DNA of 64,000 nucleotides from Arenicellales bacterium (GTDB taxonomy: Bacteria > Pseudomonadota > Gammaproteobacteria > Arenicellales > JBFEOO01). Below the pieces are notes generated by a model that had not been told where the DNA came from, searched no databases, and saw only the letters and a list, made by a program, of their open reading frames with translations. Positions 3 through 45,450 of this stretch are shown here, in pieces (position 1 is the stretch's first letter; each line of letters starts with the position of its first letter). The position numbers were made by a program, and so were the translations under genes. The DNA lies in the NCBI GenBank assembly GCA_041550555.1, contig JBFEOO010000009.1, positions 2,162 to 66,161 of the forward strand, in the 5' to 3' direction.

Positions 3-1325
3 GTTTCCGTAGAGACGACCGGCGCCATAGGTCGTCGCATGACCGTTTCGGTACCGGCGGACGAGCTGGAGCGAGAGGTCTCCAGCCGGCTCAGCCGTTT
101 GGCGAAGAATCTCAAGTTGCCGGGGTTCCGGCCGGGAAAGGTGCCACGAAAAGTCGTGGAGGCGCGCTTCGGCGGCCAGGTCATACAGGAGGCTGCCGGC
201 GAGCTGATTCAGAACACCTACCGTGACGCGCTTGGTCAGCAGGGTCTCAACCCGGCGACCACCCCCGCCATCGAGGCGACCAAGCTCGAGCGCGGCGCGG
301 ATCTGGAATATGTGGCGAGCTTCGACGTTTTCCCCGAGATCGCGAGACTCGACCTCAAGGGCAAGCAGGTCGAGCGGCCGCGCATCGAGATCCAGGACCA
401 CGACGTCGAGCGCACCATCGAGTCGGTGCGCCGACAGCGGGTGACATGGGATCCGGTGGAGCGGCCGGCGCAGCGCGACGACCGGGTGGTCATCGATTTC
501 GAAGGTACCATCGACGGTGAATCGTTCGAAGGCGGAGCGGCGAGCGATTTTCCCGCCGTGCTCGGCAGCGGCGGACTGGTTGAAGATCTCGACGAAGGGC
601 TCGTCGGAGCGCGGGCGGGAGACGAGCGAAAGGTGAAGGTCTCGTTCTCGGACGATTACCCGGGCAAGAAGGTTGCCGGCAAGACCGCTGAGTTCACCGT
701 GAAGATCAAGCAGGTCGCCGAGCCGGTCCTGCCCGAGGTGGACGAAGAGTTCGCGCGCGCCTTCGGCGTCGAAGACGGGGATCGCGACAAGCTTCGCGCC
801 GAGGTCCGTGAGAACCTGCAGCGCGAGCTGGACGAACGCCTGCGGCGACATCTTCACGATCAAGTCATGAACCTGTTGCTCGAAGGCAACGAGTTCGACG
901 TTCCGCAGCAGATGGTCGACGAGGAAGCCCAGAGAATGGCTGCTGCCATTATGGGAGAAAGCGCGAAGCGTCGTTCTGGTGCCGCGCCGCACGTCGACAC
1001 CACGGTGCTCGTTCCGGAGGCGCGCCGTCGGGTCGCTCTGGGATTGATTCTGCGCGACATCATTGCCAAGCACTCGCTCGTGGCCGATGCCGGGCGAGTG
1101 CGTGCGAAAATCGATACCATGGCGGCCAGCTACGAACATCCCGAAGCGTTCGTCCAGTGGTATTATGCCGATCAGAATCGTCTCGCCCAGGTGCAGTCGT
1201 CGGTGGTCGAGGAGCAGATCGTTGATCTGCTCGTCGAGGAAGCGGACTGCGTGGACAAGGAGATGAGCTTCGAGGAATTCATGAACGCCCTGGGGCGGAG
1301 GCAGCCGTCGGCGGGCGAGGAATGA
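3..1325 (+). CDS. tig: Trigger factor (5' end just outside the window)
   Basis: The frame opens at the window edge as [18 protein letters not shown], the canonical trigger-factor N-terminus. Has the ribosome-binding GFRPGKVP motif and an FKBP domain ([16 protein letters not shown]). Precedes clpP. Confidence 0.97.
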
Positions 1326-1386
1326 CGATGCGGATGCCTGGCGCGTCGGGCGCGGCTGGGTCGTGATGCAAGGTCGAGGAGTATCG

Positions 1387-2016
1387 ATGAGAAATCTTCA
1401 CGGAGAGCGAGAGGTGACCACGCCGAGAGGGCTCGGGTTGGTGCCGATGGTGATCGAGACCACGGGACGGGGCGAGCGCGCTTACGACATCTATTCGCGC
1501 ATGCTCAAAGAGCGTGTCGTCTTTCTCGTCGGTCAGGTGGAGGACCACATGGCCAATCTCATCGTGGCCCAGCTGCTGTTCCTGGAGTCGGAGAACCCGG
1601 ACAAGGACATTCATCTGTATGTGAACAGCCCCGGAGGCGCCGTCAACGCCGGACTCGCGATCTACGACACCATGCAGTTCATCAAGCCCAACGTGAGCAC
1701 GGTGTGCGTCGGACAAGCGGCCAGCATGGGCGCGTTGATCCTCGCCGGCGGAACCAAGGGAAAGCGCCACGCTCTGCCGCATGCGCGCATGATGATTCAT
1801 CAGCCCTGGGGAGGGTTTCAAGGACAGGCCACCGACATCGATATTCACGCACGGGAGATTCTGCGCCTGCGCGAGCGGCTGAACGAGATTCTCGTGAATC
1901 ACACGGCGCAATCGCTGGAGACGATTCAGAGTGCCACCGATCGCGACAACTTCATGGAGAGCAATGAGGCGGTGAAATTCGGACTCATCGACTCCGTTAT
2001 CGAGCACCGCAGTTGA
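1387..2016 (+). CDS. clpP: ATP-dependent Clp protease proteolytic subunit
   Basis: Motifs [30 protein letters not shown] (catalytic Ser) and MIHQP (His). Start moved to ATG 1387, which follows a GAGGAG RBS (ORF track start 1363). Confidence 0.98.
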
Positions 2017-2045
2017 GGTGCTGAGGGTGTTCTCGCCGGCGAGAC

Positions 2046-2071
2046 TTGCAAATTGCGACGAGAATCTGCAT
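2046..2071 (+). promoter_or_regulatory. Possible sigma-32-type promoter upstream of clpX
   Basis: TTGCAA-N14-CTGCAT versus consensus TTGAAA-N14-CCCCAT, upstream of a heat-shock gene. Confidence 0.35.
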
Positions 2072-2218
2072 CTTTGACATGGGAGGGGTGACCGCTGCGG
2101 GCGAGCGAGCGCGTTGAGGCGCTGGTTTCCGATGCTGGCGGTGGGGTCTGCGGGAGGTGCCCGGGGGCACGGCGAGAACCGCAGCCGCGTAGCGGACTTG
2201 AAAGGATGAGGTCGAGAG

Positions 2219-3496
2219 ATGCCTGACGACAAGCGCGACGGTAAGGGCGAGAAGCTGCTCTATTGTTCCTTCTGCGGCAAGAGTCAGCACGAGGTGCGCA
2301 AGCTGATCGCGGGTCCGTCGGTTTTCGTTTGCGACGAGTGTGTCGAGCTCTGCAACGACATCATCCGCGAGGAGGTGCAGGAAGGCGCTGAAGGCGTCGA
2401 TGCGAACAGCAAGTTTCCCCGACCGTCCGACATCCGCGAGATTCTCGATGAATACGTGATCGGCCAGGAGGACGCAAAGAAGGTGCTGTCCGTGGCCGTC
2501 TACAACCACTACAAGCGTATCGAGAACGAGGATACCGTCGGCGACGTCGATATCTCCAAGAGCAACATTCTGCTCATCGGTCCCACGGGTTCGGGCAAGA
2601 CGCTGCTCGCCGAGACGCTGGCCCGACAGCTCAACGTGCCGTTCACCATCGCCGATGCTACGACGCTCACGGAAGCCGGCTATGTCGGCGAAGATGTCGA
2701 GAACATCATCCAGAAGCTTCTGCAGAAGTGCGACTACGACATCGAGAAGGCCCAGATAGGCATCGTATACATCGATGAGATCGATAAGATCTCACGCAAG
2801 TCGGACAACCCGTCGATTACCCGTGATGTTTCAGGCGAGGGCGTGCAGCAAGCGCTGCTCAAGCTCATCGAGGGTACCGTCGCCTCGGTGCCGCCCCAGG
2901 GGGGGCGCAAGCACCCGCAGCAGGAATTTCTTCAGGTCGATACCCGGAATGTGCTGTTCATCTGCGGCGGTGCTTTTTCCGGGCTCGAGAAGGTCATTCA
3001 AGATCGATCGGAGAAAAGCGGCATAGGATTCGGCGCCGAAATCAAGAGCCGCACCGACGGCAAGTTGGGTGAGATGCTGCGCGGGCTGGAGCCCGAGGAT
3101 CTCATCAAGTACGGTCTGATTCCAGAGTTCGTGGGCCGTCTGCCCATCGTGGCCACGCTCGATGAATTGGATGAGTCGGCGCTGGTTCGGATTCTGACCG
3201 AACCGCGCAACGCCCTCGTGAAGCAGTACCAGAAGCTGTTGAAGCTCGAGGGGGTCGAGCTCGAGTTCCGGGACGACGCGCTGCGCGCCGTGGCCCGCAA
3301 GGCGATGGAGCGACGAACTGGCGCTCGCGGCCTGCGCTCCATTCTCGAGAACGCGCTTCTCGATACCATGTACGAGCTGCCCTCCATGGATGGCGTCAAG
3401 AAGGTGATCGTCGATGCCAGCGTCATCGGGGAAGGCGCGCGGCCCTTGTACATATATGAGGAAAGCGAGAAGAAGAATGCCTCCACCGTTCGCTAG
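2219..3496 (+). CDS. clpX: ATP-dependent Clp protease ATP-binding subunit ClpX
   Basis: C4 zinc finger CSFCGK...CDECVELC, Walker [29 protein letters not shown] and the TGARGLR motif. Confidence 0.99.
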
Positions 3497-3921
3497 ACGA
3501 ATGAGGGTGAAGGGATAGGCATCGACCGCGGACCGCCCACGCGTTCTCACGGGGCTCGAAGGCCAGGTTACTTCACAGCCAGGTCGACGCCGCAGGTTTC
3601 GCCCGATCTCGAAACAATGATCCCGGCATTGCATCGCTCGGGAGGCGGCCGCCGACTTGCTCGGGCTCCCGCGCCAACGTGCATGTAGGACGCCCGCTTT
3701 CGCTTTGACTCCCTCCCCGAATCTTCGATGACACCTCGAGTGCATCGCCTGTCTGGCCGCATAGTGGGCGGACGCCGCCGATGGCCGCCTGCGGCGCTTC
3801 GGTTGCAAGGCCCGGGCGCTTGCTGAACTCGCGTTGCGGCCGCGAGGGTATTCGTAGCGGCGCGCCGGGCGGCCCGCAGCTTCGTCCGGGCGGACGGGTT
3901 CCGCCGGCGGGAGCGTGGGAG

Positions 3922-3947
3922 TTGATTTCTGAAAAACCAGTCCGCAT
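3922..3947 (+). promoter_or_regulatory. Probable sigma-32-type promoter upstream of lon
   Basis: TTGATT-N14-CCGCAT; the spacing and 9/12 positions match TTGAAA-N14-CCCCAT. lon is a classical RpoH-regulon gene. Confidence 0.5.
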
Positions 3948-4145
3948 AGTTATTCTGAAGGGGCGAGGCGCGCGAGCAGAGCCTGCCGCGGATGACCGAT
4001 TTCGTAGAGGCTGCGGCTGGACACCGCCCTCATTCGAGGTTGCGGACGCGTCGGAGATCGCCAACCGGCGGACAGCGCCCGCTCATGGTCCGACCGGGAC
4101 CCCATGCCCATTTTCAGCAGCCGCCCAGCGGTATCAGGTATAGCG

Positions 4146-6584
<2,439 letters not shown>

Positions 6585-6706
6585 GTAGCGCGAAATCAGG
6601 TACTTAGAGTAAACCGTGCGACACGCTTGACCGCTCGTCGTTGCGCGTGACGGAACGGCGTCCGCGAACGCTTGGGTCGACCCGGTATGAGCCTCCCGTT
6701 GTTGCC

Positions 6707-6736
6707 TTGACAGCGCTTTTTGGCGCTTGGTATAAG
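6707..6736 (+). promoter_or_regulatory. Sigma-70 promoter for hupB/tRNAs
   Basis: TTGACA at 6707-6712, 18-nt spacer, TG extension and TATAAG at 6731-6736, about 100 nt upstream of the hupB start. Confidence 0.7.
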
Positions 6737-6838
6737 GTCGTGCCCGGGGAGGAGTATCTGAGCGTCATCGTCTCACCACGCTCGGAGCCCGCCCATATTT
6801 CAACAATACGCCCCCGTCGAAGAAGGAGGATGTAAAGC

Positions 6839-7111
6839 GTGAACAAAGCCGAACTGATCGACTTGGTTGCTGACACCACCGATCTATCCAAAGCTTCTGC
6901 TGGACGAGCCGTTGAGGCCGTGTTCGATGGCATTTCCAATTCCCTGCAGAAGGGCGATTCCGTTACGCTCGTCGGTTTCGGAACTTTCTCCGTCAGTCAG
7001 TCGGCCGCGCGAACTGGCCGCAATCCCCGGACGGGCGAGACGATCCATATCCCCGCGCTGAAGAAGCCAAAATTCAAAGCTGGCAAAGGACTCAAGGATG
7101 CCTTAAACTGA
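6839..7111 (+). CDS. hupB: DNA-binding protein HU
   Basis: MNKAELID...[11 protein letters not shown]...[12 protein letters not shown]...[14 protein letters not shown]; sits in the conserved lon-hupB-ppiD order. Confidence 0.97.
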
Positions 7112-7122
7112 GGCGCCCCTGC

Positions 7123-7198
7123 GGGTGCTTAGCTCAGCTGGGAGAGCGTCGCCCTTACAAGGCGAAGGTCGCAGGTTCGAGCCCCGCAGCACCCACCA
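7123..7198 (+). tRNA. tRNA-Val (anticodon TAC)
   Basis: Cloverleaf with GGGTGCT/AGCACCC acceptor stem, anticodon loop CT-TAC-AA in a TCGCC/GGCGA stem, GGTTCGAG T-loop and encoded CCA. Confidence 0.97.
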
Positions 7199-7207
7199 GC
7201 ATCGTCG

Positions 7208-7285
7208 GGAGCGGTAGTTCAGTTTGGTTAGAATACCGGCCTGTCACGCCGGGGGTCGCGGGTTCGAGTCCCGTCCGCTCCGCCA
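7208..7285 (+). tRNA. tRNA-Asp (anticodon GTC)
   Basis: GGAGCGG/CCGCTCC acceptor stem, anticodon loop CT-GTC-AC, GGTTCGAGTCC and encoded CCA. Confidence 0.97.
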
Positions 7286-7295
7286 AGTATCGCCG

Positions 7296-7327
7296 AGCGG
7301 CGAGGAATAGCTCCTCGCCGCTTTTTT
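7296..7327 (+). terminator. Rho-independent terminator after the tRNA pair
   Basis: Stem AGCGGCGAGGA/TCCTCGCCGCT with a 5-nt loop, followed by a T run. Confidence 0.85.
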
Positions 7328-7375
7328 CGTGGGGCGTTTCCAACGCACGCATTTTACCGACCGACTTGAACTGCG

Positions 7376-9286
7376 ATGCTCAGCCAGATACGTGACAGAG
7401 CCACCGGCTGGATTGCCTGGGCCATTGTCATCATCATCACGATTCCGTTCGCCTTGTGGGGCATCAACTCCTATTTCGAAGGACTGACACAGGTCGACGT
7501 GGCCATCGTCGACGGCGAGGAGATTGACTATCAGACTTATCAGAATGCCGTATCCGAGCGGCGCCGATTCATGCTGCAGACGCTCGGTGGCCGTGTCGAT
7601 CCGGATGTCTTCAACAGCGATGAATTCAAGACCCAGGTTCTCGACGATCTGATCGACGATGTGCTGCTGAGCAACGAAGCGCGCCGGTTCGGATACCGCG
7701 TCAGCGATGCACAGCTCGCCGCATGGATTCAGTCTCTTCCTCAGTTTCAGCGAGACGGAGCCTTCGACCGCGCGCTCTACGAGGATGTGCTGCGACGCGT
7801 AGGTTACACAGTGGCCCAGTTCGAGTCCCTGCAGCGTCGACAGAGCACGCTCGACCAGCTGCGCACCGCCTACGGCGATTCCGCCTTCGTTACCGATAGC
7901 GACGTCAACAATCTGTTGAAGCTCATATACGAAAGGCGGCAAGCCGAGTACGTCACGCTCACTCCCGAGATGTTCACGGGCGACGTCGAGGTGTCGGATG
8001 CCGAAATCGAGCAGGAATACCAGGCGAACACCGAGCGCTACCGTGAGCGGGCGCGGCTGAAGGTCGCCTACGTCGAATTGAGCGTGGACGAGCTCGCGCA
8101 GGCGATTACGCCGAGCGAAGATGAGCTGCGCCAGCTCTACGATGAGAGTGAACAGCGGTTTGTCGCTCCAGAGCAGCGCCGGGCCAGCCATATACTGGTG
8201 GCGCTCGCCGAGGACGCTGATGAAGCCGCTCGGAAGGCCGCCTTGGACAAGGCCGTTGATCTTGCTGCGCAGGCCCGGGCCGGCACAGACTTTGCGGAAC
8301 TCGCCCGTGAGCATAGCGACGATTCGGGATCGGCCGCCAACGGGGGTGACCTTGGCGTGATCAGTCGCGGGGTCATGGTGGCGCCCTTCGAGCAGGCTGT
8401 GTACGACATGGAGGAGGGCGCGATCAGCGATCCTGTGGAGACTCGCTACGGTTACCACGTGATTCGACTTGCGGAGGTGGTCCCCGAACGCCGCAAGACC
8501 TTTGAGGAAGTGCGAACCCAGCTGGAGGAGCAAGAGCGACGACGGCAGGCGGAGGCGCTCTTTCTGCACAACGCGGAGACATTCCGCAATCTCGTTTACG
8601 AGCAGCCGGAGTCCCTGGAGCCGGTTGCCGAGGAGCTCCGGCTCGAGATCAAGGAAAGCGACTGGTTTACCTCGAGTCAAGGCGAAGGAGTAGCAGCCAA
8701 TCCCCGGATGCGCGAGGTCGCGTTCGGTGAAGAGGTGCTCGAAGGCGGGCTGAACAGTGAAGTCATCGAGATCGGCTTGAATTCACTCGTTGCCGTGAGA
8801 AAGCTCGCGTACGAAGAGTCGAAGCTCAGCCCGTTGGGACAGGTGCGCGACGCGATTCGTACGGAGCTGCAGAGAGCGAAAGCGGCGACCAAGGCAGAGG
8901 AGGCGGGCGAAGAGATGCTGAAGGCCCTGAGAGGTGGCGCCGAATGGGAAAGAATGCTCGAAGAGCGCGGGCTGACAGTGACTCCTTTGCCCGAGCTGCG
9001 CAGCGAAGCGACAGCCAATGAGGCGCGAGCCGTCGCCGAGGCGGTGTTCGCTGCGCCGAGGCCTGCGGCGGAGCCGGTATTCGGCGGTGCTTCCGCCGAG
9101 TTCGGTAACTATGCCGTTTACAGGCTCTCCTCGGTCACAGCGGGTGATCCGGAGGGGATTGAGGAGAGTGAGCGGGCTCGCGTGGTCGAGCTGCTGCGGC
9201 AACGCCAGGGAGTGGATTACTTTTTGGCGTATCGACAGGGTCTCAGGGACCGAGCCGACGTCACCGTGTTCACCGAACAGCTATAG
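7376..9286 (+). CDS. ppiD: Membrane-anchored periplasmic chaperone/peptidyl-prolyl isomerase D
   Basis: N-terminal TM (WIAWAIVIIITIPFALWG), SurA-N region and parvulin domain (RASHILV...SDDSGSAANGGDLG...PFEQAV...GYHVI); synteny with hupB. Confidence 0.95.
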   Translation: MLSQIRDRATGWIAWAIVIIITIPFALWGINSYFEGLTQVDVAIVDGEEIDYQTYQNAVSERRRFMLQTLGGRVDPDVFNSDEFKTQVLDDLIDDVLLSNEARRFGYRVSDAQLAAWIQSLPQFQRDGAFDRALYEDVLRRVGYTVAQFESLQRRQSTLDQLRTAYGDSAFVTDSDVNNLLKLIYERRQAEYVTLTPEMFTGDVEVSDAEIEQEYQANTERYRERARLKVAYVELSVDELAQAITPSEDELRQLYDESEQRFVAPEQRRASHILVALAEDADEAARKAALDKAVDLAAQARAGTDFAELAREHSDDSGSAANGGDLGVISRGVMVAPFEQAVYDMEEGAISDPVETRYGYHVIRLAEVVPERRKTFEEVRTQLEEQERRRQAEALFLHNAETFRNLVYEQPESLEPVAEELRLEIKESDWFTSSQGEGVAANPRMREVAFGEEVLEGGLNSEVIEIGLNSLVAVRKLAYEESKLSPLGQVRDAIRTELQRAKAATKAEEAGEEMLKALRGGAEWERMLEERGLTVTPLPELRSEATANEARAVAEAVFAAPRPAAEPVFGGASAEFGNYAVYRLSSVTAGDPEGIEESERARVVELLRQRQGVDYFLAYRQGLRDRADVTVFTEQL

Positions 9287-9346
9287 TCGGACGGGGCGCC
9301 TGCAGACGTGATCAATACGGGAGCGCTCGATGCAGGGTGCCGGGCC

Positions 9347-10138
9347 TCAGTCGAGCTGGCGTTCGCTCAGGCCCACGATGTTGAAGCCGCAGTCGACATA
9401 GACAATCTGCCCTGTTATGCCCGAGGCGAGGTCTGAACAGAGAAAGGCCGCTGTGTTCCCCACCTCGTCGATGGTTACCCCTCGACCCAGTGGGACGGTT
9501 TTCTCATAGTAGTCCATCATTTTTCGGAAACCGCCGATCCCCGCGGCCGCCAGCGTTTTGATGGGGCCCGCCGAGATCGCGTTGACCCGCGTCCCCTCCG
9601 GCCCGAGCGACTGTGCAATGTACCGGACGTTCGCCTCGAGACTTGCCTTGGCCAATCCCATCACGTTGTAGCCGGGCATGGCACGCAGCGCGCCGATGTA
9701 GGAGAGTGTCAGCAACGCCCCATTGCGACCGCTCATCATGGCACGCGATGCCTTGGCCAGTGCCGCAAAGCTGTACGAGCTGATTTCGTGCGCCGTCAGG
9801 AACCCTTCCCGTGTGACGCAGTCGAGATACAGTCCATCGAGCTCGTCGCGTGGTGCGAATGCGACAGAATGAACGAGTATGTCGAAACCATCCCAGAAGT
9901 TGTCGAGCTGGGCGAAGACGGCATCGATCTGCTCGTCGTCGCCTACATCGCAGGGGATGACGATGTCCGACTCCAAGCTCGCCGCATACTTCTCGACGCG
10001 AGGCCGGAGCTTCTCGTTCTGATAGGTGAACGCCAGCTCGGCGTTCTCCCGATGCATCGCTTTGGCGATGCCCCAGGCTATGGAGCGCTCACTCGCCACA
10101 CCGATGATAAGTGCGCGTTTTCCCGCTAAGAAACCCAT
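9347..10138 (-). CDS. fabI: Enoyl-ACP reductase (NADH)
   Basis: [36 protein letters not shown] and [13 protein letters not shown]. Confidence 0.98.
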
Positions 10139-10307
10139 ATCTGATCCTCAGCTCGAATGTACGGCAACGGCCCGGGCTGTCCTGCGCCGAAGTGGATCGA
10201 TCGTATACGATAGTTTAGGATCGCCTATACATCAACACACCGCTGCTCGCCGGTGACGAGCGACATGGAGGTGACATGTCTTCCCTGTCGGCAATGAGCG
10301 TGACGGA

Positions 10308-36328: not shown

Positions 36329-37915
36329 TTAGAATCCGCCGGCGTGCCCGTCTTTGCGATGATCCGATGCGGCGCAGTAGCCGTTGTGCAACGCGTAGAT
36401 CAGCTGGGCGCCGCCGAACAGCGCCATGGAAACATCGTCCGGATCCATCAGCGTGTGGCCACGTCGCTCGAGCTCGCCGCTGAGCTGGGGCGCAAACCCC
36501 TGCTCGAGACCGATGCGGCCGTCCCGGTCGATATACCAGCGCGGCGCGTCGGAGGCGGTCTGAGGGTTCTGTCCGTAGTCGACGATGCGCACCACCATCT
36601 GCACATGACCCTGTGCCTGCATGTGGCCCCCCATGACCCCGAAGCTCATGAGCGGGGCTCCGTTGCGCGACACGAAGCCCGGGATGATGGTGTGAAAGGG
36701 ACGCTTGCCGCCGCCGACGAGGTTCGGGTGCCCCGGCTCGAGGGAGAAGCCCACCCCCCTGTTCTGGAGACTGATGCCCGTTCCCGGAACCACCACGCCT
36801 GATCCAAATCCCTGATAGTTCGACTGGATCAAAGACACCATCATCCCGGCGGCATCGGCCGCCGTGAGGTATACGGTGCCTGCGTCGTCGGGCAGCGGCG
36901 CCACCGGTCGCGACGCTCGTTCCAGCGATATTGCGGCTGCCTGTCGGGCGAGTCGCGATGCGTCGAGTAGCTCATCGATCGACGTCTGCATCGTCGCGGG
37001 ATCACCGATGTGCTGGCGCGCCTGATCGAGGGCGATCTTCATCGCTTCGATCTGAACGTGCACGCTGTCGGGGGAATCCGCCGCATACCCCGCCACATCG
37101 ATGTGCTGCAGTATCCCCAACGCGATCAGAGCAGCCAGCCCTTGGCCGTTCGGGGGCAGCTCGTGCACGCGCACGTCGCGGTAGTCCTGAGCGATAGCGT
37201 CGACCCATTCCGAGCGGTGCTCGGCCAGATCGTCGAGGGACAGCGCCCCATTCTCGCGCTCGGCGTGTCGTACGAGCTGCTCGGCGAGGGCGCCTCGGTA
37301 AAACGATTCGCCCATCGATTCGGCAATGCTCTCGAGCGTCGCGGCCTGCTCGGGCATCACGAAGAGTTCGCCCGCGGTTGGTGGGCGTCCCGACGGCAGG
37401 TAGGCGTCGGCAAAGTCGCTCCGATGCCCGAAGCGTGTCGCTGCCAGGCGCCAGCGGGAGGCGATGATGGGCGAGACGATGAAGCCTTCTCGCGCGTAGT
37501 GGATGGCGGGGTCGAACAAGCTCGCAAACGGCAGCGATCCGAATCGGCGATGAAGCTGAACCCAAGCGTCCACGGCGCCGGGCACCGTCACCGATTCCCA
37601 GCCCTGCGCGGGCATCGCACTCAGCCCCTCGAAACGCTCCGGTGACCACGTTTTCGGCGCGCGTCCCGACGCGTTCAGCCCGTGGAGGCGGTTGCCGTCC
37701 CACACGATCGCGAAGGCGTCACTGCCGATGCCGTTACCGCTGGGCTCGACGACGGTCAGCGTAATCGCCATCGCCAGGGCCGCATCCACCGCATTGCCAC
37801 CCGATTGCAGCGCGTTCAGCCCGGCCTGCGTGGCGAGAGGCTGCGACGTGGCCACCGCATTGCGCGCCAGCACCGGAGAGCGCCGCGAGGGGTAGTCAAA
37901 CGTCCAGGAAATCAT
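36329..37915 (-). CDS. Gamma-glutamyltransferase-family Ntn hydrolase (cytoplasmic, YwrD-like)
   Basis: ATSQPLA..AG...GGNAVDAA, nucleophile GTVYL, SLIQSNYQGFGSG, KRPFHTIIP and GVMGGHMQAQGH; no signal peptide. Start ATG 37915. Confidence 0.93.
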   Translation of the reverse strand: MISWTFDYPSRRSPVLARNAVATSQPLATQAGLNALQSGGNAVDAALAMAITLTVVEPSGNGIGSDAFAIVWDGNRLHGLNASGRAPKTWSPERFEGLSAMPAQGWESVTVPGAVDAWVQLHRRFGSLPFASLFDPAIHYAREGFIVSPIIASRWRLAATRFGHRSDFADAYLPSGRPPTAGELFVMPEQAATLESIAESMGESFYRGALAEQLVRHAERENGALSLDDLAEHRSEWVDAIAQDYRDVRVHELPPNGQGLAALIALGILQHIDVAGYAADSPDSVHVQIEAMKIALDQARQHIGDPATMQTSIDELLDASRLARQAAAISLERASRPVAPLPDDAGTVYLTAADAAGMMVSLIQSNYQGFGSGVVVPGTGISLQNRGVGFSLEPGHPNLVGGGKRPFHTIIPGFVSRNGAPLMSFGVMGGHMQAQGHVQMVVRIVDYGQNPQTASDAPRWYIDRDGRIGLEQGFAPQLSGELERRGHTLMDPDDVSMALFGGAQLIYALHNGYCAASDHRKDGHAGGF

Positions 37916-38262
37916 CGCCTTCGAAGCGTATCTCCGTGGTGCGCGCCGTCGCCGGTCGCCGCGGATGCGGTGGGCTCGCTGGAGGGCCCGCTGTGGCGCC
38001 GATTGCGGCGAGCCATTCGGGGTGTCACGCAACCATGCCGGCCAGCGCCGCGGGCCTGACACGGCGTCTTCACTCTGCCAGAATCGTCGTTGCCAAACCA
38101 GAGTTACAAAGCCGTTGCTACGACATCCAATCGTGCCGCCGGCGCGCGGCGGGCGTTCTCTGCCCCGTCTCGTCGGCCGACGCACCGCGCCGCCCAGCTC
38201 GGGCCAATACCGGCGCGGGCCGATACCGGCGCACAGCGCTTGATCGCGACACTGCCGACGCG

Positions 38263-39099
38263 ATGAGCCAGCTCAAACAGTCCTTCGCACCGACTTCGCT
38301 GGCTGTGGCGATAGCCGGCTTCGGCACCATCGGCGAGGCGGTGGCCGACAAGCTTCGCGAGGATGTGCCGGGTGTGCGCTTGTGTGCCATTGCCTCGCGC
38401 GATGTCGCCCGTGCGCGAGCCGCCATGGTGCGGGCAGGCGTCAGCGTACCGGTAATGGCAGCCGCGGAGCTGCCAGAGGTCGCCGATGTCATCGTCGAGT
38501 GCGCTCCAGCGGCGGCATTCCGCGAGATTGCCGTTCCGGCCCTCGAGGCCGGACGCATCCTCGTGCCGCTGAGCGCCGGCGCGTTGCTGGATTGCCCGGA
38601 CCTGATCGAGCTGGCGAGGGAGCGCGGGGCTCGCATTATCGTTCCCACCGGCGCGCTGCTCGGCCTGGACGCGGTACGCGCTGCGGCGGAAGGGCACATC
38701 CATTCCGTGAGGATAGTTACCCGAAAGCCGCCGGGCGGGTTGGCGGGTGCGCCCTACCTGAGGCAGCGCGACATCGATATCTCTGCGCTCGAAGCGCCGC
38801 TCAGGCTGTTCAAGGGCACCGCCCGCGAGGGGGTCGCGGGTTTCCCGGCGAACGTCAACGTCGTGGCGGCGCTGAGTCTCGCCGGAATCGGTGCGGATCA
38901 GACGCAGCTCGAGATCTGGGCCGATCCTGGCGTGGACCGCAACATGCACCGCATCGAGGTCGATGCCGACAGCGCTCACTTCTCGATGAAGATCGAGAAC
39001 GTACCGAGCGAGACCAACCCCGCCACCGGGCGTATCACGCCGTTGAGCGTGGTCGCCTGTCTGCGCGGGCTGGTGGCGACGCTAAGGGTCGGTTCTTAG
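38263..39099 (+). CDS. nadX: L-aspartate dehydrogenase (NadX-like)
   Basis: GFGTIG Rossmann motif, VECA, GALLGLDAVRAA, FPANVNV, NMHRIEV and NPATG. Confidence 0.85.
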   Translation: MSQLKQSFAPTSLAVAIAGFGTIGEAVADKLREDVPGVRLCAIASRDVARARAAMVRAGVSVPVMAAAELPEVADVIVECAPAAAFREIAVPALEAGRILVPLSAGALLDCPDLIELARERGARIIVPTGALLGLDAVRAAAEGHIHSVRIVTRKPPGGLAGAPYLRQRDIDISALEAPLRLFKGTAREGVAGFPANVNVVAALSLAGIGADQTQLEIWADPGVDRNMHRIEVDADSAHFSMKIENVPSETNPATGRITPLSVVACLRGLVATLRVGS

Positions 39100-39124
39100 C
39101 AGCCGGACACCAACAACCCGCAGC

Positions 39125-39631
39125 TTACTTCTGGATCACGTCCACGGTGAGGCTGCGCTCCTCCTCGCCGCAGTCTTGCTCGCACAGGCGGATGTCGAAC
39201 TCGGTGCCACGCACGCCGAGGGTGGCCACCGGCGTGTTCACGCGGTACGCATCCGGATTGGTCTTGGCAATGGCGCCGGTGAGTGCCCGCAGCCCGCCTT
39301 TGACGAGATTCAGGGCGGAGCCGTCGTTGTCGCCGCCGTACGCGTACTCGTCTATGACCAGCACGCTACCGGGGCGCACGGTCACCTTACTGTCGTCCGT
39401 AAAGCGGATGACGGTGAAGCTCTTGGCAGCGGTAGTCACCGTGTCACCCACCAGGATCTCCGCGCCCTTCTCGATGAGCCGCGCCTCGGCGCCGTCCTGC
39501 TGAGCGGACACACTTCCCTTGACCATAATCGCTTCGCCGGCGACGTCGGCCGCGGCTATGGGCGCCGTGAGCAGCACGGCCGCCGCGAAGAGCCATCGCC
39601 CGCGCGAGACCCTGGCATTTTTGCTCTTCAT
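39125..39631 (-). CDS. Secreted stand-alone FecR-domain protein (short form)
   Basis: Signal peptide; GDTVTT...IRFTDDSKVTV, LNLVKGGLR, VNTPVATLGVRGTEF; ends shortly after CEQDC. Confidence 0.88.
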   Translation of the reverse strand: MKSKNARVSRGRWLFAAAVLLTAPIAAADVAGEAIMVKGSVSAQQDGAEARLIEKGAEILVGDTVTTAAKSFTVIRFTDDSKVTVRPGSVLVIDEYAYGGDNDGSALNLVKGGLRALTGAIAKTNPDAYRVNTPVATLGVRGTEFDIRLCEQDCGEEERSLTVDVIQK

Positions 39632-39728
39632 GATGATCGCCCTTCCTAGTCAAACAAATCGTGCGATCTACATTACACCAAATCCGCCCCGTTTACTATC
39701 GGCCCTACCCCTAACTATACGCCTCTCG

Positions 39729-41306
39729 CTATGCGGGGCTGGCTGGCGGTGGCGCCGGCGGTGGCGGTGGCGGTGGTGGCGGTGGCGGTGGCGGTGGCGG
39801 TGGCACCGCTCCTCCGCCGCCACCGGACGGTGCGCCCGGCGCCGGCGCGGGTGCGCCGCCGGCCGTGATTGCCGCCGCGGCGCCGGCGCACTCTGCCGCC
39901 GCCATGAGTCGATCGATGCAGTCGGCGGGTGCTGCGCAATCCAGCCGGTCCATCTCGTGGTAAAAGACAATCGCGGGCACGTCCGTCATGCCGAGCTCGG
40001 CCGCCGCCCGCAACCGCTCGGGCTCGTCCACGATCAGGGTGCGTGACTCGCTCATCAGGGTGACCGCCATGGGCCGGCGCCCGAAGCCATTCTCACGCAC
40101 ATCACCGAGCAGCGCCTCGTACCGCTCGGGGTCGATTGCCTCGCGTTCGGGGATGTCGACCGTTTCCTGCCACTGCGCCATCGAAACCAGCAGATGGTGA
40201 TCGCCCACTCGAAGCTCCGGCACGGGGGTCAGCTCTTCGAGTTGGCCGAAGTAGGCGTCGGCGACCTCCTGCAGGGTGACGTCCGCCCCGAAACCGCTGA
40301 CCAGACGCTGATGGCGCTCGTTGTAGAGGAATACGACCGGCAGGCTGGTCAGCCCGCTGGCGTGCGCCGCCTCGAGCCGCTCGAGCGACCAGTCCAGCAC
40401 GATCTGCTGACCCTCGCGGTAGAGCGATACGAAAACCACCTCCCGCGGGTTTCCCCCCGGCCGGGTCGTGGGCGGGCCGGGTCGGTACCAATACTGCTCG
40501 CCCGCCAACGCGAGGAGCTCGGACATCGAGGCGTTGAGGTTGGCGTCGCCGGCACGCCAGAAGGGGGACGGCCCCAGACGATCGTTGTCCTCGAAGAAAC
40601 GCTTGGCGACCTCGGCGATGGTCCGGTTTTCCAACGGCAGTTCCTCGATCGCGTACACGGGGGCGTACTTCGCCGAGTCACGCGCCGTTCCGCACACCCA
40701 GCCAGGCATGTAGGGCAATAGATCGATGGCGGCGTTGACCAAGAAATCTACGCGCTCGGGCTGTGCCTTGACAGTCAGGAATATGGCGTCGCTCATCGTC
40801 ATCCCGAGACCAACCAGGTGCAGGAGGACGGAGTAGGGCGGGTAGCCGCGGCGCAGCAGGTCTGTAACCGCCGCCTGCCGTTGGTCGTTGATGGCGCGAA
40901 AGCTGCCGAAAGGTCGCCACGACTCGCTGCTGCCGACGCCGCACACGGCGGCGAGAATCAGGCTGGGGCGAGGCATCACATCTTGCAGGAAGAACTCCGG
41001 ATTCTGCTCCAGGCACGACAGCAGGCGCTCGTCGACGAAACCTGCGTCGCCCGGCTCGAGCTCGAGAAGCTCATCGCCCCGCTCTAAAAACGAGCCGCCA
41101 TCGTAGACCGTCATGTAAAGGCCAGGCGCCACGTCCTCTTCGGCCAACGAGCGGCACTCCGCTTCGGTGACCGCGGCCGCGGCCTGCTGGGCCTGTGTCG
41201 GCGGCGTGAAGGAGAAGAAAGCGATCAGCGTCGACAGCGATGCGATGGCCAGACGGCGGCCCGTCGCTGCGTGCCCCTGACCCCGCAGATTCGTCACATA
41301 CCGCAT
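39729..41306 (-). CDS. Secreted hypothetical protein: FecR-C-like segment, helical region, two tandem ParB/Srx-like repeats and a poly-Pro tail
   Basis: ATG 41306 after a GGGGGG RBS-like run; signal peptide (RRLAIASLSTLIAFFSFTPPTQA-Q); internal repeat visible by eye; 525 aa. Confidence 0.85.
   Translation of the reverse strand: MRYVTNLRGQGHAATGRRLAIASLSTLIAFFSFTPPTQAQQAAAAVTEAECRSLAEEDVAPGLYMTVYDGGSFLERGDELLELEPGDAGFVDERLLSCLEQNPEFFLQDVMPRPSLILAAVCGVGSSESWRPFGSFRAINDQRQAAVTDLLRRGYPPYSVLLHLVGLGMTMSDAIFLTVKAQPERVDFLVNAAIDLLPYMPGWVCGTARDSAKYAPVYAIEELPLENRTIAEVAKRFFEDNDRLGPSPFWRAGDANLNASMSELLALAGEQYWYRPGPPTTRPGGNPREVVFVSLYREGQQIVLDWSLERLEAAHASGLTSLPVVFLYNERHQRLVSGFGADVTLQEVADAYFGQLEELTPVPELRVGDHHLLVSMAQWQETVDIPEREAIDPERYEALLGDVRENGFGRRPMAVTLMSESRTLIVDEPERLRAAAELGMTDVPAIVFYHEMDRLDCAAPADCIDRLMAAAECAGAAAAITAGGAPAPAPGAPSGGGGGAVPPPPPPPPPPPPPPPPAPPPASPA
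39757..39804. repeat. (GGCGGT)n hexamer tract encoding a ~15-residue poly-Pro run
   Basis: About 8 near-perfect GGCGGT units; read on the minus strand as CCA/CCG Pro codons. Confidence 0.9.
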
Positions 41307-41627
41307 CGTGCCCCCCCTGATTTCCTGATCGGAGGCTGTCCTCCCACCGGAGAAATCTCGTCCGTGGCACACTCCCCTGTCGGGGGCGCGTCCCCGAGCG
41401 TCTTGCTGTCCGCCCTGTCCGCGGCGTACCTTGCCGAGTTTACGCGCCGGCGTGCCGTACTTGTCAAGTACGCACCTTTGCGTGTTCAATGGCGGTGGCG
41501 CCGTGATCGCCTAGAAAAAGCACCCCCTACTATGGAAAGCATAGGCCGAAAGGCCAAAAAGGCAACCGTTTTGGCGCTCCGCGCCGCAGCGCCCCCAGCG
41601 GTGCCCAATTCCTAGGGCGAGGACAGC

Positions 41628-43805
41628 ATGCGTCGCTATGTTCTGCGGATTGCCCTGAGCCTGACCATTGCGCTGGTCTTCGCCGCGCACGTTGCCGGGA
41701 TCTTCGAGCTCGGCATCATCGATCGTCTCGAAGACCTGAGCTACGACGCGCGCCTCAACCTGACGTTGCCCGGTGGGGTGGATCCGCGCATCGTGATCAT
41801 CGATATCGACGAGACCAGTCTGCGTCAGGAGGGCCACTGGCCATGGTCGCGGATCAAGCTCAAGGACCTGGTTGAAAAGCTTTTCGATCACTATGGCGTA
41901 GCCGTGCTCGGTTTCGACGTGGTTTTCGCCGAGCGGGAAGGCAATTATGTCGTCAACATGCTGCGCGACGTCAGTGCCCAGGCGGGTGACGACGAGTTTT
42001 CCGAGAAACTCGGCGCCTACGCCGATCAGTACGATCCTGATCAGCTCTTCGCAGAAGCCCTCGAAGGCCGGCCCGTGGTGCTTGGTTACTTCTTCAATAC
42101 CGATCCGACCAAAGTCGGTGAACAAACGGGCGCACTGCCGGAGCCGACGTTCGAGGAGGACGACTACATCACGCGATCGATCTTCGCGCCACGGGCATCG
42201 ACCTATGGCGGTAATTTACCGGTGCTCCAAGAGAGCGCATGGAACGCCGGCTTCTTCAGTACCCCGTTGATCGCCCGCGACGGAGTCATTCGGCGCGTGC
42301 CCCTGCTTCACGAGTATGAGGGGTCGCTCTACGAGTCGCTCGGGCTGGCGGTGGCTCGGGTTTATCTCGACGACATCGTGCTGCCGCTGTTCGCCGAGGG
42401 CGTCGAGGTGGCGGGTTATCCGTCAATGGAGGCGCTCGAATTGGCCGGTGAGCGGATTCCCATCGACGCCGACTCTGGCGTGCTGGTGCCCTATCGCGGG
42501 CCTCCGCGCAGCTTCCCGTATATATCCGCCACGGACGTGCTGAAGCTGACCGTGCCCGACGCGCAAGCCTTGGATGGAGCCATCGCCTTTCTGGGCGCGT
42601 CTGCCGCCGGGCTCGCCGACCTGCGGGCGACTCCCGTCGAAGCGGTGTTTCCCGGCGTCGAGGTTCACGCCAATGTCACGGCGGGTATCCTCGACGGCTC
42701 TTTCAAGGAGCGGGCGGCGTATACCCGCGGCGCCGAGCTTGGCTACATCGCCGTCTTTGGAACGTTGGTCGGCGTGGTGCTGCCCCTGCTCAATCCCGTC
42801 GTGGCCATGTCGCTGGTATTCGTGATGCTTGCCGGAACCATCGGCTTCAACATGTATCTCTGGCAGCAAGGCGTGGTGTTTCCGCTAGCAGGGAGCCTGT
42901 TGCTGGTCATCACGCTGTTCTCTGTCAACGCCGTGTACGGTTTCTCCGTAGAGTCGCGTTCGAAGCGGCTGCTGCGCCGGGCATTCAGCTCCTATCTCTC
43001 TCCCGCTCTGGTCGAGCAGATCGCCGACGATCCTAACAAGCTGCGTCTCGAGGGGGAAACCCGCATGATGACGTTCCTGTTCACCGATATCGCAGGGTTC
43101 ACCACATTCGCCGAGCGCGTCGAGCCGAAGCTTCTGGTCAGCCTGCTCAATGAGTATCTCGATTCCATGTGCGGCATCGTCATGGACTACGGTGGCACGA
43201 TCGACAAGATTGTTGGCGACGCCGTGCACGCAATCTTCAATGCGCCACTCGACCAGCCCGATCACGCCGAGCTTGCCGTCCGCTGCGCGCTCGATTTGGA
43301 CCGCTTTGGGATGGAGTTCATCGAAAAGCAGGAACAGCAGGGGGTCAAGTTCGGGGTCACGCGCATCGGCGTCAACACGGGCCCTGCCGTGGTCGGCAAC
43401 TTCGGAGGCAGTCGTCGCTTCGATTACACCGCTCACGGCGACGCGATCAACACGGCGGCGCGTATGGAGAGTGTGAACAAACACCTGGGGACACGCGTCT
43501 GCGTATCGAGGACCACGGTGGATCTGTGCACGGACCAACATTTCCGGCCCATTGCCGGCCTGGTCTTGAAGGGTAAGACCGAGGCCGTCGTCGCCTACGA
43601 GCCCATCAGCGAAGACGAGGCCAGCTCGCAGCGTGTTAAGGACTACCTCGCGGCGTATGAGCTAATGAAGGCCGAGTCGACCGAGGCACGGGCCGCTTTC
43701 GAGAAGCTGGCCGTCGACTATCCCGACGATCCGGTTATCCAGCTCCACCTCGGGCGGCTGACCGAGGGGGAAGTCGGCGAAGTGCTGGTGATGGCAGAGA
43801 AATAA
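41628..43805 (+). CDS. CHASE2-domain class III adenylate cyclase
   Basis: CHASE2 motifs (IVIIDIDETSL...WPWSR, LGFDVVFAE, PGVEVHAN) and three TMs. Cyclase motifs FTDIAGFT, IDKIVGDA, DYTAHGDAINTAARME; the Lys/Thr pair indicates ATP specificity. Short TPR-like C-tail. Confidence 0.95.
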   Translation: MRRYVLRIALSLTIALVFAAHVAGIFELGIIDRLEDLSYDARLNLTLPGGVDPRIVIIDIDETSLRQEGHWPWSRIKLKDLVEKLFDHYGVAVLGFDVVFAEREGNYVVNMLRDVSAQAGDDEFSEKLGAYADQYDPDQLFAEALEGRPVVLGYFFNTDPTKVGEQTGALPEPTFEEDDYITRSIFAPRASTYGGNLPVLQESAWNAGFFSTPLIARDGVIRRVPLLHEYEGSLYESLGLAVARVYLDDIVLPLFAEGVEVAGYPSMEALELAGERIPIDADSGVLVPYRGPPRSFPYISATDVLKLTVPDAQALDGAIAFLGASAAGLADLRATPVEAVFPGVEVHANVTAGILDGSFKERAAYTRGAELGYIAVFGTLVGVVLPLLNPVVAMSLVFVMLAGTIGFNMYLWQQGVVFPLAGSLLLVITLFSVNAVYGFSVESRSKRLLRRAFSSYLSPALVEQIADDPNKLRLEGETRMMTFLFTDIAGFTTFAERVEPKLLVSLLNEYLDSMCGIVMDYGGTIDKIVGDAVHAIFNAPLDQPDHAELAVRCALDLDRFGMEFIEKQEQQGVKFGVTRIGVNTGPAVVGNFGGSRRFDYTAHGDAINTAARMESVNKHLGTRVCVSRTTVDLCTDQHFRPIAGLVLKGKTEAVVAYEPISEDEASSQRVKDYLAAYELMKAESTEARAAFEKLAVDYPDDPVIQLHLGRLTEGEVGEVLVMAEK

Positions 43806-43860: not shown

Positions 43861-45450
43861 TCAGTACGCCGCGGCAATGCCGTCCCCGCGGGGGTCGGCG
43901 GCACCCTCGATAACACCGTCAGGGCGCCGCACGACTGCACCGGCATGCCCCATGCGCTCGTCGAATCCCGCAACGACCTCCACGTCATGGCCGGCACGGG
44001 CGAGCGCTTCGCGCACCTCGGCCGGGAAACGACGCTCTATCGTGAGATTGAGGCGCGGTGTTCCCCACGTACGCCCGAGCAGCCAGCGCGGCGCGGTTAC
44101 CGCCTGCTGCAACGGCTGGTCATACATGGCGTAGCGGCTGAACACGGCGGCCTGGCTCTGTGGCTGGCCGTCACCGCCCATGCACCCGTAGACCATGAGG
44201 CGCCCGTCGCGCAACCTTGCCAGCGCGGGATGGATCGTGTGAAAGGGGCGTCGGCCCGGCGCGAGCGCATTGGGCGCCTTGGCGTCGAGGCGAAAGCTGG
44301 CACCGCGATTCTGCCAGGTGATGCCCGTCTGCGGCAGAACGAGGCCGGAGCCGAACTCCCAGTAGATGCTCTGTATGAAGCTCACCGCCCGGCCGGCGCC
44401 GTCGATGGCACCAAGCCAGACGGTGTCCCCGCGCGCCTCGCCCGTCGCCCAGGGCGCTGCCTGCGCCAGGTCGATCTCCCCGGCCAAGGCGTCGAGGCGC
44501 GCTGCATCGAGATACTCCCGCGGGTCGACGCGCATGGTTGCCGGGTCGGCGATGTGCGCGTCGCGGACGCGGAACGCGCTTTTGGTCGCCTCGATCAGCC
44601 GGTGCACGTGATCGAAGCCATCCGCCTCCGGCGGACGCATGCGATCGAAGAGGGCGAGAATGATCAGCGAGGCGAGCCCCTGCGTAGGCGGTGGCAGCTG
44701 ATAGACCCTGGCGCAGTCGAGATCCACGCTGAGCGGGGAGACGCTGAGCGCCCGGTGAGCATGCAGATCGGCTGCACGAAGCGGGCTGTCGACGTGGGCG
44801 AGATCGGCGGCGAGCGAGGCGGCAAGCTCACCGCGGTAGAAGTCGTCGAGTCCTCTGCGTGCGAGCTGCTCCAGGGTCGCCGCCAGGCGTGGCTGACGCA
44901 GCGGCGCCCCGACGGTCGGGGCCTGATCCCCGTTCAAGAACACCTCGGCGAAGCCCGGGCATGGGAGCAGCTCATCGAGATGGTCAGCGGTGTTCTGGTG
45001 CTGACTGCGGGTGGTAGGGACGCCCGCATTGGCGTAATAGATGGCGTCCTCGAACAGCCGTGCGAGGGGCAGCCGCCCGCCCCAGCGCGCCGCGATATCG
45101 AGCGCCGCCGCCCACCCCGACACAGCGCCGGCGACGGTGATGGCGGCAAGAGGGCCGCGCGTGGGCATATTTTCGTAGCCGAGGTGACGATAGAAGTCGA
45201 TCGAGACCGCGCTCGCCGCGGCACCGCAGGCGTCGATGGCGGTCGGCGCGCCGTCGCCGCCGGTCAGTAGCCAGAAATTGTCGCCGCCCAAACTGTTCAT
45301 ATGTGGATAGACGACGGCGATGGTGGCGCCGGCCGCCACCATCGCCTCGATGGCGTTGCCGCCCTCGCGCAGCACGCGTAATCCTGCTTGCGCGGCGAGG
45401 TGATGCGGGGCGACGACCATGCCGCGGGTAGCTCGTGGGGTGTGCCGCAT
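43861..45450 (-). CDS. GGT-family Ntn hydrolase, oxamate amidohydrolase HpxW-like
   Basis: GMVVAPHHLAAQAG...IAVVYPHMNSLGGD, GDTVW nucleophile, SFIQSIYWEFGSG and MGGDGQPQSQ; resembles the HpxW subfamily from recall. Confidence 0.85.
   Translation of the reverse strand: MRHTPRATRGMVVAPHHLAAQAGLRVLREGGNAIEAMVAAGATIAVVYPHMNSLGGDNFWLLTGGDGAPTAIDACGAAASAVSIDFYRHLGYENMPTRGPLAAITVAGAVSGWAAALDIAARWGGRLPLARLFEDAIYYANAGVPTTRSQHQNTADHLDELLPCPGFAEVFLNGDQAPTVGAPLRQPRLAATLEQLARRGLDDFYRGELAASLAADLAHVDSPLRAADLHAHRALSVSPLSVDLDCARVYQLPPPTQGLASLIILALFDRMRPPEADGFDHVHRLIEATKSAFRVRDAHIADPATMRVDPREYLDAARLDALAGEIDLAQAAPWATGEARGDTVWLGAIDGAGRAVSFIQSIYWEFGSGLVLPQTGITWQNRGASFRLDAKAPNALAPGRRPFHTIHPALARLRDGRLMVYGCMGGDGQPQSQAAVFSRYAMYDQPLQQAVTAPRWLLGRTWGTPRLNLTIERRFPAEVREALARAGHDVEVVAGFDERMGHAGAVVRRPDGVIEGAADPRGDGIAAAY

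Follow-up and report, generated by a model that had tools for sequence, protein, structure and literature searches.

A predicted envelope protein family with a duplicated, motif-eroded ParB/Srx-like fold, its long form encoded beside FecR and often CHASE2 cyclase genes in Arenicellales

We analysed a 64,000-nucleotide stretch of DNA from an Arenicellales bacterium (GenBank assembly GCA_041550555.1, contig JBFEOO010000009.1; hereafter the window), in which a gene at 39729..41306 on the minus strand (open reading frame, ORF, and its translation) encodes a protein of 525 amino acids (aa), P0001. We suggest, with moderate confidence, that this gene specifies a periplasmic, binding subunit of a FecR/CHASE2 cyclic AMP (cAMP) module, one that does not act as a nucleoside triphosphatase (NTPase). 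The protein carries two copies of a domain related to the ParB/sulfiredoxin (Srx) fold, a predicted signal peptide in front of them, and a FecR-domain gene and a CHASE2 cyclase gene at its two sides. The ParB/Srx fold has probably been reused here as a binding module outside the cytoplasm.

Two repeats with a ParB/Srx-like fold

The internal duplication of P0001 is real and far beyond chance. Residues 216-338 and 339-460 match one another at 32% identity over 111 columns in BLASTP (45 bits, E 5e-12), and profiles of the two repeats, cut from an alignment of 46 family members, match in HHalign with a probability of 99.7% (E 7.6e-26, 106 columns). Both copies open with a helix (VAxRFF or VxxxYF), continue with a PxPxWxxGDxH motif and a beta-(alpha)-beta-beta-alpha-beta core, and close that core with LPVVFxYN or PVVFFYH. 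A first-pass annotation of this DNA had proposed such a duplication over 39953-40626, and the proposal holds: the repeats are ~117 aa long, the span corresponds to residues 228-452 within one base, and all six peptides that it quoted are present in the P0001 translation, at residues 228-238/343-353, 245-254/360-369, and 308-328/429-449. The duplication of the two domains appears to be ancient.

Repeat 2 (residues 339-456, 39939..40292, on the minus strand as are all parts of this gene), delimited by Pfam, profile and Foldseek comparisons, is the better-preserved ParB/Srx-fold domain. Its residues 388-447 match Pfam ParB_N (PF02195) at E 0.0038 and 17.7 bits, short of the gathering score of 26.3; there is no PF02195 match to repeat 1, and only 3 of the 46 family members match ParB_N even at E<0.01. 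When the repeat-2 family profile was compared with PDB sequences, SbnI came out best (6e-5), followed by M. xanthus ParB, Noc, C. crescentus ParB and Spo0J at 0.02-0.3, and the top seven matches are all of these kinds. An AlphaFold2 model of P0001, built on the family alignment, has a mean pLDDT (predicted local distance difference test score) of 80.1 and a pTM (predicted template modelling score) of 0.69, with pLDDT >90 across residues 140-480. Foldseek comparison with ParB/Srx structures, which the first-pass annotation had named as a check, returned this fold throughout the best 44 PDB matches (Noc, Srx, ParB, KorB, SerK, SbnI, PadC and Pnob8 ParB), at probabilities of 0.69-0.99 over ~83 columns and TM scores of ~0.47-0.55 when normalised to the length of Srx. 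The modelled elements of repeat 2 run in the order beta1, helix, Box I-like helix (393-406), beta2, beta3, helix, beta4, and helix 393-406, with the NGFxxxP loop that follows it, aligns with the ParB Box I region. We conclude that the core fold of repeat 2, as modelled, is ParB/Srx.

Repeat 1 (residues 222-338, 40293..40643) is a cut-down ParB/Srx-like core, recognised by HHalign against repeat 2, by the model and by Foldseek. A model of repeat 1 alone has a pLDDT of 85.5, and its first 36 Foldseek matches are again of the ParB/Srx fold, with weak scores (E 0.4-4, 40-47 columns). The repeat-1 profile finds no match among PDB sequences, so that its only links to ParB/Srx are its kinship with repeat 2 and these weak Foldseek matches. 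It has no equivalent of the Box I helix but a loop with W273-Y274 instead (40485..40490), and these two are the sole invariant residues of the 46-member alignment. Taken together, the comparisons support repeat 1 as a homologous, more degenerate ParB/Srx-derived copy, its homology to repeat 2 being secure.

The GxxR motif of Box II is near-invariable in NTP-binding ParB-fold proteins (NTP, nucleoside triphosphate), and its Arg is required for binding (Kaljevic et al., 10.1101/2025.10.10.680097). At the position of the corresponding ParB P motif (GERRxR), repeat 2 of P0001 has DEPERLR (residues 427-433, 40008..40028). HMMER alignments to ParB and Noc set the 'depeR' of the family consensus beneath the ParB 'aGerR' and, in a longer view, 'l-l-d-e-p-e-R-v-a-v-A' beneath 'i-i-a-G-e-r-R-w-r-a-s'. 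The Gly of GxxR (position 428) is found in 0/46 members, where D, R, E, Q or S stands instead, while the Arg position (431) holds R in 27/46 (59%) and K in 6/46. In repeat 1, D305, which sits at the Asp of DGxxR-type relatives, is kept in 42/46, R is found at the Arg position in 11/46, and there is no conserved Arg. GxxR is lost family-wide; judged by this defining motif, these proteins therefore fall outside the ParB-CTPase family, with the fold retained. These results bear out the earlier description of repeat 2 as ParB-N-like by sequence (a Pfam match below gathering and an SbnI profile match), with GxxR replaced by DEPER and the P motif eroded.

Conservation is concentrated elsewhere. The best-conserved polar and aromatic residues are W250, H256, E263, W273, Y274, Y296, D305 and N329 in repeat 1, and W365, D369, H371, Y449 and R454 in repeat 2. 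P0001 itself deviates from the family by H256N, W365L and E378Q (codons at ~40539-40541, 40212-40214 and 40173-40175), positions that hold H in 42/46, W in 40/46 and E in 36/46 members; all three residues are retained in the short paralogue of the same genome and in the long paralogues that were inspected (e.g. P0004).

Two groups of known proteins offer the closest structural comparison. Repeat 2 superposes on Srx, SerK and SbnI over ~83 columns, SbnI is its best profile match, and neither they nor P0001 have a helix-turn-helix (HTH) or a dimerisation domain. Those proteins, however, are enzymes of the cytoplasm or nucleus that use ATP and keep a GxxR, GCHR or DGxHR motif intact, whereas in the family the Gly of the motif is absent and the Arg poorly kept, and the domain is tandem-duplicated, preceded by a helical domain and provided with a signal peptide. 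With ParB/Spo0J, Noc, KorB and PadC, repeat 2 shares the core fold and the order of elements, and ERLRAAxxLG...VP of P0001 aligns with GERRxRAAxxAG...VP of the ParB-CTPase clamps. Unlike these clamps, P0001 lacks an HTH, a ParA-binding motif and a C-terminal dimerisation domain, and it is predicted to be extracytoplasmic. Neither an HTH nor a dimerisation region was found in its AlphaFold2 model or by Pfam, TIGR00180 gives it 13 bits where the cut-off is 58.45, and the neighbouring genes that were examined (FecR, CHASE2 cyclase, gamma-glutamyltranspeptidase and aspartate dehydrogenase) did not include a ParA homologue. A canonical ParB, which would have an HTH and a ParA partner, was rejected on these grounds.

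Predicted export and gene neighbourhood

P0001 opens with a predicted Sec signal peptide (residues 1-39, 41190..41306), recognised from its sequence and from the N-termini of the family and already claimed in the first-pass annotation. The N-terminus consists of MRYVTNLRGQGHAATGRR, LAIASLSTLIAFFSF and TPPTQA|QQ, that is, a basic n-region, a 16-aa hydrophobic core and a small-x-small site, with cleavage predicted as likely after TQA or inside QQAAAA; inspection of this signal peptide found no Cys lipobox. An AGGGGG Shine-Dalgarno-like run lies 5' of the ATG at 41306, and homologues of P0001 start at the same signal peptide. By a simple heuristic of hydrophobicity, charge and small-x-small site, a comparable leader is present in 34/46 family members, those without it being mostly fragments or mis-called starts, and just 3/46 have a second hydrophobic window. 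Further to that, the family core is fused to a FecR domain in P0012 and P0061, to an OmpA-family peptidoglycan-binding domain in P0041 and to a thrombospondin type 3 repeat (TSP_3) in P0042, and one member, P0029, carries a DUF900 hydrolase. The cysteines conserved in the family (PGWxC and RxxCxxPxxCxxxxC) fit with an oxidising compartment. Export is a prediction well supported by the family-wide signal peptides, the extracytoplasmic fusion domains (FecR, OmpA, TSP_3) and the conserved cysteines, and P0001 is most likely an exported, soluble envelope protein, presumably periplasmic.

We see hardly any room for a mis-called start that would make P0001 an ordinary ParB/Srx-like protein of the cytoplasm. 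Start calling in GC-rich DNA is generally uncertain, which would allow for such an error, as would an ORF that stays open to a TTG at 41489, but the hydrophobic leader position is kept in those 34 of 46 members, the next internal Met, M65, falls within the conserved N-terminal domain, the extension up to the TTG is Arg/Gly-rich and without counterpart in homologues, and the fusion domains are exclusively of periplasmic types. A cytoplasmic protein with another start was thus rejected as very unlikely, with the conserved leader, the location of M65 and the unmatched upstream extension all ruling against it.

Behind the signal peptide lies a beta-rich N-terminal domain (~residues 45-125, 40932..41174), present in long paralogues only and with a homologue in FecR proteins, where it comes after the FecR domain. 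It is modelled poorly by AlphaFold2 (pLDDT 40-60), and it matches stand-alone counterparts in ORFs of 250-340 aa in relatives. The helical domain that follows (residues 134-221, 40644..40907), defined by AlphaFold2 helices (134-152, 157-166, 171-181 and 183-199, pLDDT >93) and by family conservation (consensus LLxxGYPxxxVxLHxxxxGxxIxD...LPGWxC), has no relative in PDB or Pfam by sequence and Foldseek comparison. In the model, this domain and the two repeats appear to form a rigid unit.

The FecR-domain gene (39125..39631, minus strand; Pfam FecR 6.5e-12) encodes a putative partner of 168 aa with its own signal peptide, and lies on the same strand as the P0001 gene, 97 bp after its stop. At the other side, a CHASE2-sensor adenylate/guanylate cyclase of 725 aa is encoded at 41628..43805 on the plus strand (Pfam CHASE2 6.5e-53, Guanylate_cyc 4.5e-23), divergent from the P0001 gene and 321 bp apart from it. 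P0001 is therefore flanked by FecR and CHASE2 genes, and the window holds a FecR/CHASE2 envelope-signalling gene module. A scan of 38900-41800 for promoters and terminators found nothing above shuffled expectation, so that the assignment of the P0001 and FecR genes to one operon is taken from their 97-bp same-strand spacing only. A small FecR-domain gene stands immediately upstream of the long paralogue in 7/7 relatives, and in 5/7 an orthologue of the CHASE2 cyclase precedes the FecR and long-paralogue genes on one strand. In the window this cyclase-FecR-ParB-like order is rearranged, the ParB-like gene coming before the FecR gene and the cyclase being divergent, with the three genes still together.

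Protein architectures bring the FecR and ParB-like genes closer still. P0012 (626 aa) joins orthologues of the two window genes end to end, its residues 18-157 being 43% identical to the window FecR protein and its residues 159-602 aligning to residues 43-480 of P0001; another fusion to FecR is P0061; and in P0092 a FecR domain is followed by a segment homologous to residues 59-115 of P0001. The architectures of P0012 and P0092 indicate that the N-terminal segment belongs structurally with the FecR domain, which may explain its low model confidence when alone. We suggest that the long class acquired an N-terminal segment belonging with the FecR domain, and the FecR and ParB-like genes of the window look like a fission product, split between the FecR domain and the segment after it; no sign of a permutation inside a protein was seen.

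The family includes two paralogue classes, both present in the window's own genome: a short class made of the core only (~400-440 aa), and the long class with the additional N-terminal segment (~residues 45-125). Short paralogues lie directly upstream of a gene for an EpsL-like outer-membrane barrel in 12/14 loci, at a distance of 14-16 bp and often just after serS, and the EpsL-like neighbour is also found in metagenomic homologues and in one genome outside the order. The short paralogue of the window's genome (36% identical; contig C52, locus L035 10262-11749, minus strand, with neighbours at 27-10247) opens an exopolysaccharide (EPS) cluster that begins after serS. After it come EpsL-like, EpsE/Wza-like, Wzc-like tyrosine-kinase and VpsP-like genes, and then sugar-nucleotide and amidotransferase genes, including those for a sugar 4,6-dehydratase-like enzyme and an asparagine-synthase-type amidotransferase. 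No EpsL neighbour was seen beside the relatives of the long paralogue in the loci compared. Membership of an EPS export operon is thus a property of the short paralogues and not of the long paralogue in the window. Neither the two paralogue classes nor this EPS link had been noticed in the first-pass annotation.

Proposed role and rival readings

The loss of GxxR, together with the missing base-contacting helix in repeat 1, leads us to suggest that the fold has most likely ceased to bind or hydrolyse NTPs, whose presence outside the cytoplasm would not be expected. The repeats would now probably bind either a protein partner or a ligand of envelope or polysaccharide type, and the idea of a ligand-binding sensor fits the conserved linkage to FecR and the CHASE2 cyclase. 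In the mechanism that we propose, the N-terminal segment would dock on the FecR protein, the tandem ParB-like unit would bind a signal or partner, and the complex would modulate the periplasmic CHASE2 domain of the cyclase, thereby altering cAMP synthesis. The analysis itself shows the duplication, the fold, the loss of the motif, the signal peptide, the gene linkage and the fusion, and from these we infer where the protein is located, that NTPase activity is lost, that FecR is contacted, what is bound and which way the signal runs.

A polysaccharide or export-machine ligand is attractive because of the kinship with an EPS-operon gene and because of the aromatic and acidic invariant positions in repeat 1, which is speculation on our part. 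It may be, although we hold this more specific version doubtful, that the tandem unit is the ligand-recognition subunit of the CHASE2 pathway, descended from a periplasmic component of the polysaccharide-export machinery, and that it binds an exported polymer or export intermediate through the Trp-Tyr pocket of repeat 1 and reports through FecR to the cyclase. If this were true, cAMP would track exopolysaccharide or envelope status, and the family would be the first in which the ParB/Srx fold serves outside the cytoplasm and without a nucleotide, as well as one of the few defined CHASE2 inputs.

Several points weigh against a periplasmic, non-NTPase subunit of a cyclase module. The export of P0001 is a prediction from its sequence alone, and its deviations at three near-invariant positions could mean an altered or relaxed function. 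The model of the N-terminal segment is of low confidence, and docking on FecR is suggested by the fusion and by P0092 only. Two of the seven relatives (L026/L033 in genome G053 and L028 in G041) keep the FecR pair without a CHASE2 cyclase in their flanks, and a further locus, L034, from a close relative of one of them, likewise keeps the pair with no CHASE2 cyclase within ~7 kb, which makes the cyclase link weaker than the FecR link. P0001 also keeps D427, R431 and R433, with residual phosphate or nucleotide binding by repeat 2 being possible, and sequence and AlphaFold3 are unreliable predictors of nucleotide binding (Kaljevic et al., 10.1101/2025.10.10.680097).

These retained residues, along with the Box I-like helix and loop, would also be expected of a true nucleotide sensor, whose repeat 2 binds a nucleotide or phosphate ligand outside the cytoplasm (extracellular ATP or DNA, a cyclic nucleotide, polyphosphate or a sugar phosphate), and NTP specificity does vary among ParB-fold proteins (10.1101/2025.10.10.680097). 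We nevertheless consider such a sensor rather unlikely: the Gly is never present and the Arg in just 59% of members, the best-conserved residues are elsewhere (W273, Y274, D305, H256, H371), and those ParB-fold proteins that were tested depend on the P-motif Arg for binding (10.1101/2025.10.10.680097). An enzyme acting on an envelope or matrix polymer, either a polysaccharide modifier or a ParB-like nuclease for extracellular DNA, that uses the GDxH, Asp, Glu and Asn residues, has some basis in the PxPxWxxGDxH...EL motif of both repeats, in D305, N329 and H450, in the DUF900 alpha/beta-hydrolase fusion P0029 and in the EPS-operon location of the short paralogue. We give it little credence, as P0001 has lost H256, W365 and E378, several members tolerate substitution at the motif positions, and no match to known hydrolase, lyase or nuclease families was obtained with Pfam, NCBIfam, profile or Foldseek searches.

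It is possible, if on the unlikely side, that the protein is a structural or scaffold component of the envelope with no sensing role, which binds peptidoglycan, the EpsL barrel or a Wza-like channel, with the long paralogue tethering FecR. The short paralogue at the head of an EPS export operon, 14-16 bp before the EpsL-like gene, and the OmpA-domain fusion P0041 would suit this role, as would the Pro-rich tail of 22/46 members; a rigid poly-Pro tail might, with similarly limited likelihood, span the periplasm like a TonB spacer. However, the long paralogue has moved out of the EPS operon, its consistent neighbours being signalling genes, and the tail is missing from many short paralogues.

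The preferred reading of a periplasmic FecR/CHASE2 subunit has a partial parallel in the 'BiofilmReg' operon of Burkholderia, composed of a response regulator, a LysM-FecR protein, a CHASE2 histidine kinase and a DUF4136 protein (PMC5192318). As in that operon, an exported FecR-domain protein is encoded next to a CHASE2 transmembrane sensor, together with a further exported protein. The differences are that the output here is an adenylate cyclase and not a histidine kinase, that the FecR protein has no LysM, and that the additional exported protein is tandem ParB-like, not DUF4136, and can be fused to FecR.

The exported example of a ParB fold that we found in the literature searched is CdiA-ToxB, which acts in the target cytoplasm and needs the P-motif Arg. 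ToxB (CdiA-CT) is a ParB-CTPase fold used as a contact-dependent inhibition (CDI) toxin, embedded in CdiA and accompanied by an immunity gene; it works as an ATPase in the cytoplasm of the target, and its P-motif mutant R108A is inactive (10.64898/2026.05.05.722872). ToxB resembles the family as a ParB-like domain that is sent out of its producer cell and no longer binds DNA, whereas the family has no CdiA/CdiB context, no immunity-like neighbour and no intact P motif. A CdiA-type ParB toxin was rejected for lack of a CDI context and of an intact P motif.

What is already known comprises the ParB/Srx fold itself, its versatility, which is under active study, and the co-operons of FecR and CHASE2 (PMC5192318). 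A 2025 survey of the ParB-CTPase fold does not contain the words signal peptide, periplasm, secreted, extracellular, transmembrane or tandem (10.1101/2025.10.10.680097). What is new here is an unmodelled family with a duplicated, P-motif-less ParB/Srx fold, predicted to lie outside the cytoplasm and tied to CHASE2/FecR and to EPS export.

The ParB/Srx fold is otherwise found in cytoplasmic and nuclear proteins and in toxins delivered into other cells. It has been studied as a versatile NTP-binding switch or enzyme module, and the family would show its reuse where nucleotides are not expected. To our knowledge, CHASE2 is a widespread sensor domain with unknown ligands, and FecR-domain partners are often encoded alongside it. 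The family is a concrete candidate for the input side of the CHASE2/FecR pathway because of its fusion and adjacency to FecR and its sister paralogue in an export operon. Its practical limit is that it is rare, with carriers that are so far uncultured.

Family distribution and further features of the locus

When 1.84 billion representatives were searched exhaustively, the family comprised 101 clusters at 50% identity with E<1e-3, 76 of which reached E<1e-10, whereas a homologue search with a word index gave 2 matches only. A scan for related loci found none with P0001 as the query and 2 loci with the protein of a relative. No Pfam or NCBIfam model covers the family when all paralogues are scanned, the NCBIfam matches to SerK, TIGR00180, NuoE and FosU being far under their cut-offs. 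The family is matched in 31/61 genomes of the order and in 4/300 evenly sampled genomes of the class, 2 of these 4 being outside the order. It is thus rare and concentrated in Arenicellales, and so far known from uncultured Arenicellales-type metagenome-assembled genomes (MAGs) and metagenomes. The one named NCBI record among those looked up is a 'hypothetical protein' from an Arenicellales MAG, and the fusion protein is annotated in NCBI merely as 'FecR domain-containing protein'.

Downstream of repeat 2, alignment and model define a Cys-containing helical segment (residues 457-483, 39858..39938) with helices at 464-473 and 478-482 and the family consensus RxxCxxPxxCxxxxCxAAxxAG, of which P0001 retains C457, C463 and C473. 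The protein ends in a Gly-rich and then poly-Pro tail (GGGGGAV, P16, APPPASPA; 39729..39857, including the stop), and Pro makes up at least 20% of the last 60 aa in 22/46 family members. C-termini vary by subgroup: many long paralogues terminate in GGGG and poly-Pro, several short paralogues in ...QCTS or ...LCTS, and one divergent subgroup in ...CASPPC(N/AL). No known sorting signal was recognised at the C-termini of the family in its alignment (A1).

Around the module, two gamma-glutamyltranspeptidase paralogues bracket the genes discussed (36329-37900 and 43861-45450, both on the minus strand; Pfam G_glu_transpept 1e-144 and 3e-125), and an aspartate dehydrogenase-like gene lies at 38254-39099 on the plus strand. 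Locus L034, from an uncultured gammaproteobacterium MAG, contains at 7001-8477 an orthologue 77% identical to the L033 protein, and its neighbours include a Cys/Met pyridoxal phosphate (PLP) enzyme and a DUF1289-containing ORF. This orthologue aligns as pieces in two frames (7088-8161 and 8076-8345), which suggests a frameshift, either real or an assembly error, and the family matches of four genomes (G037, G055, G030 and G213) have one in-frame stop each.

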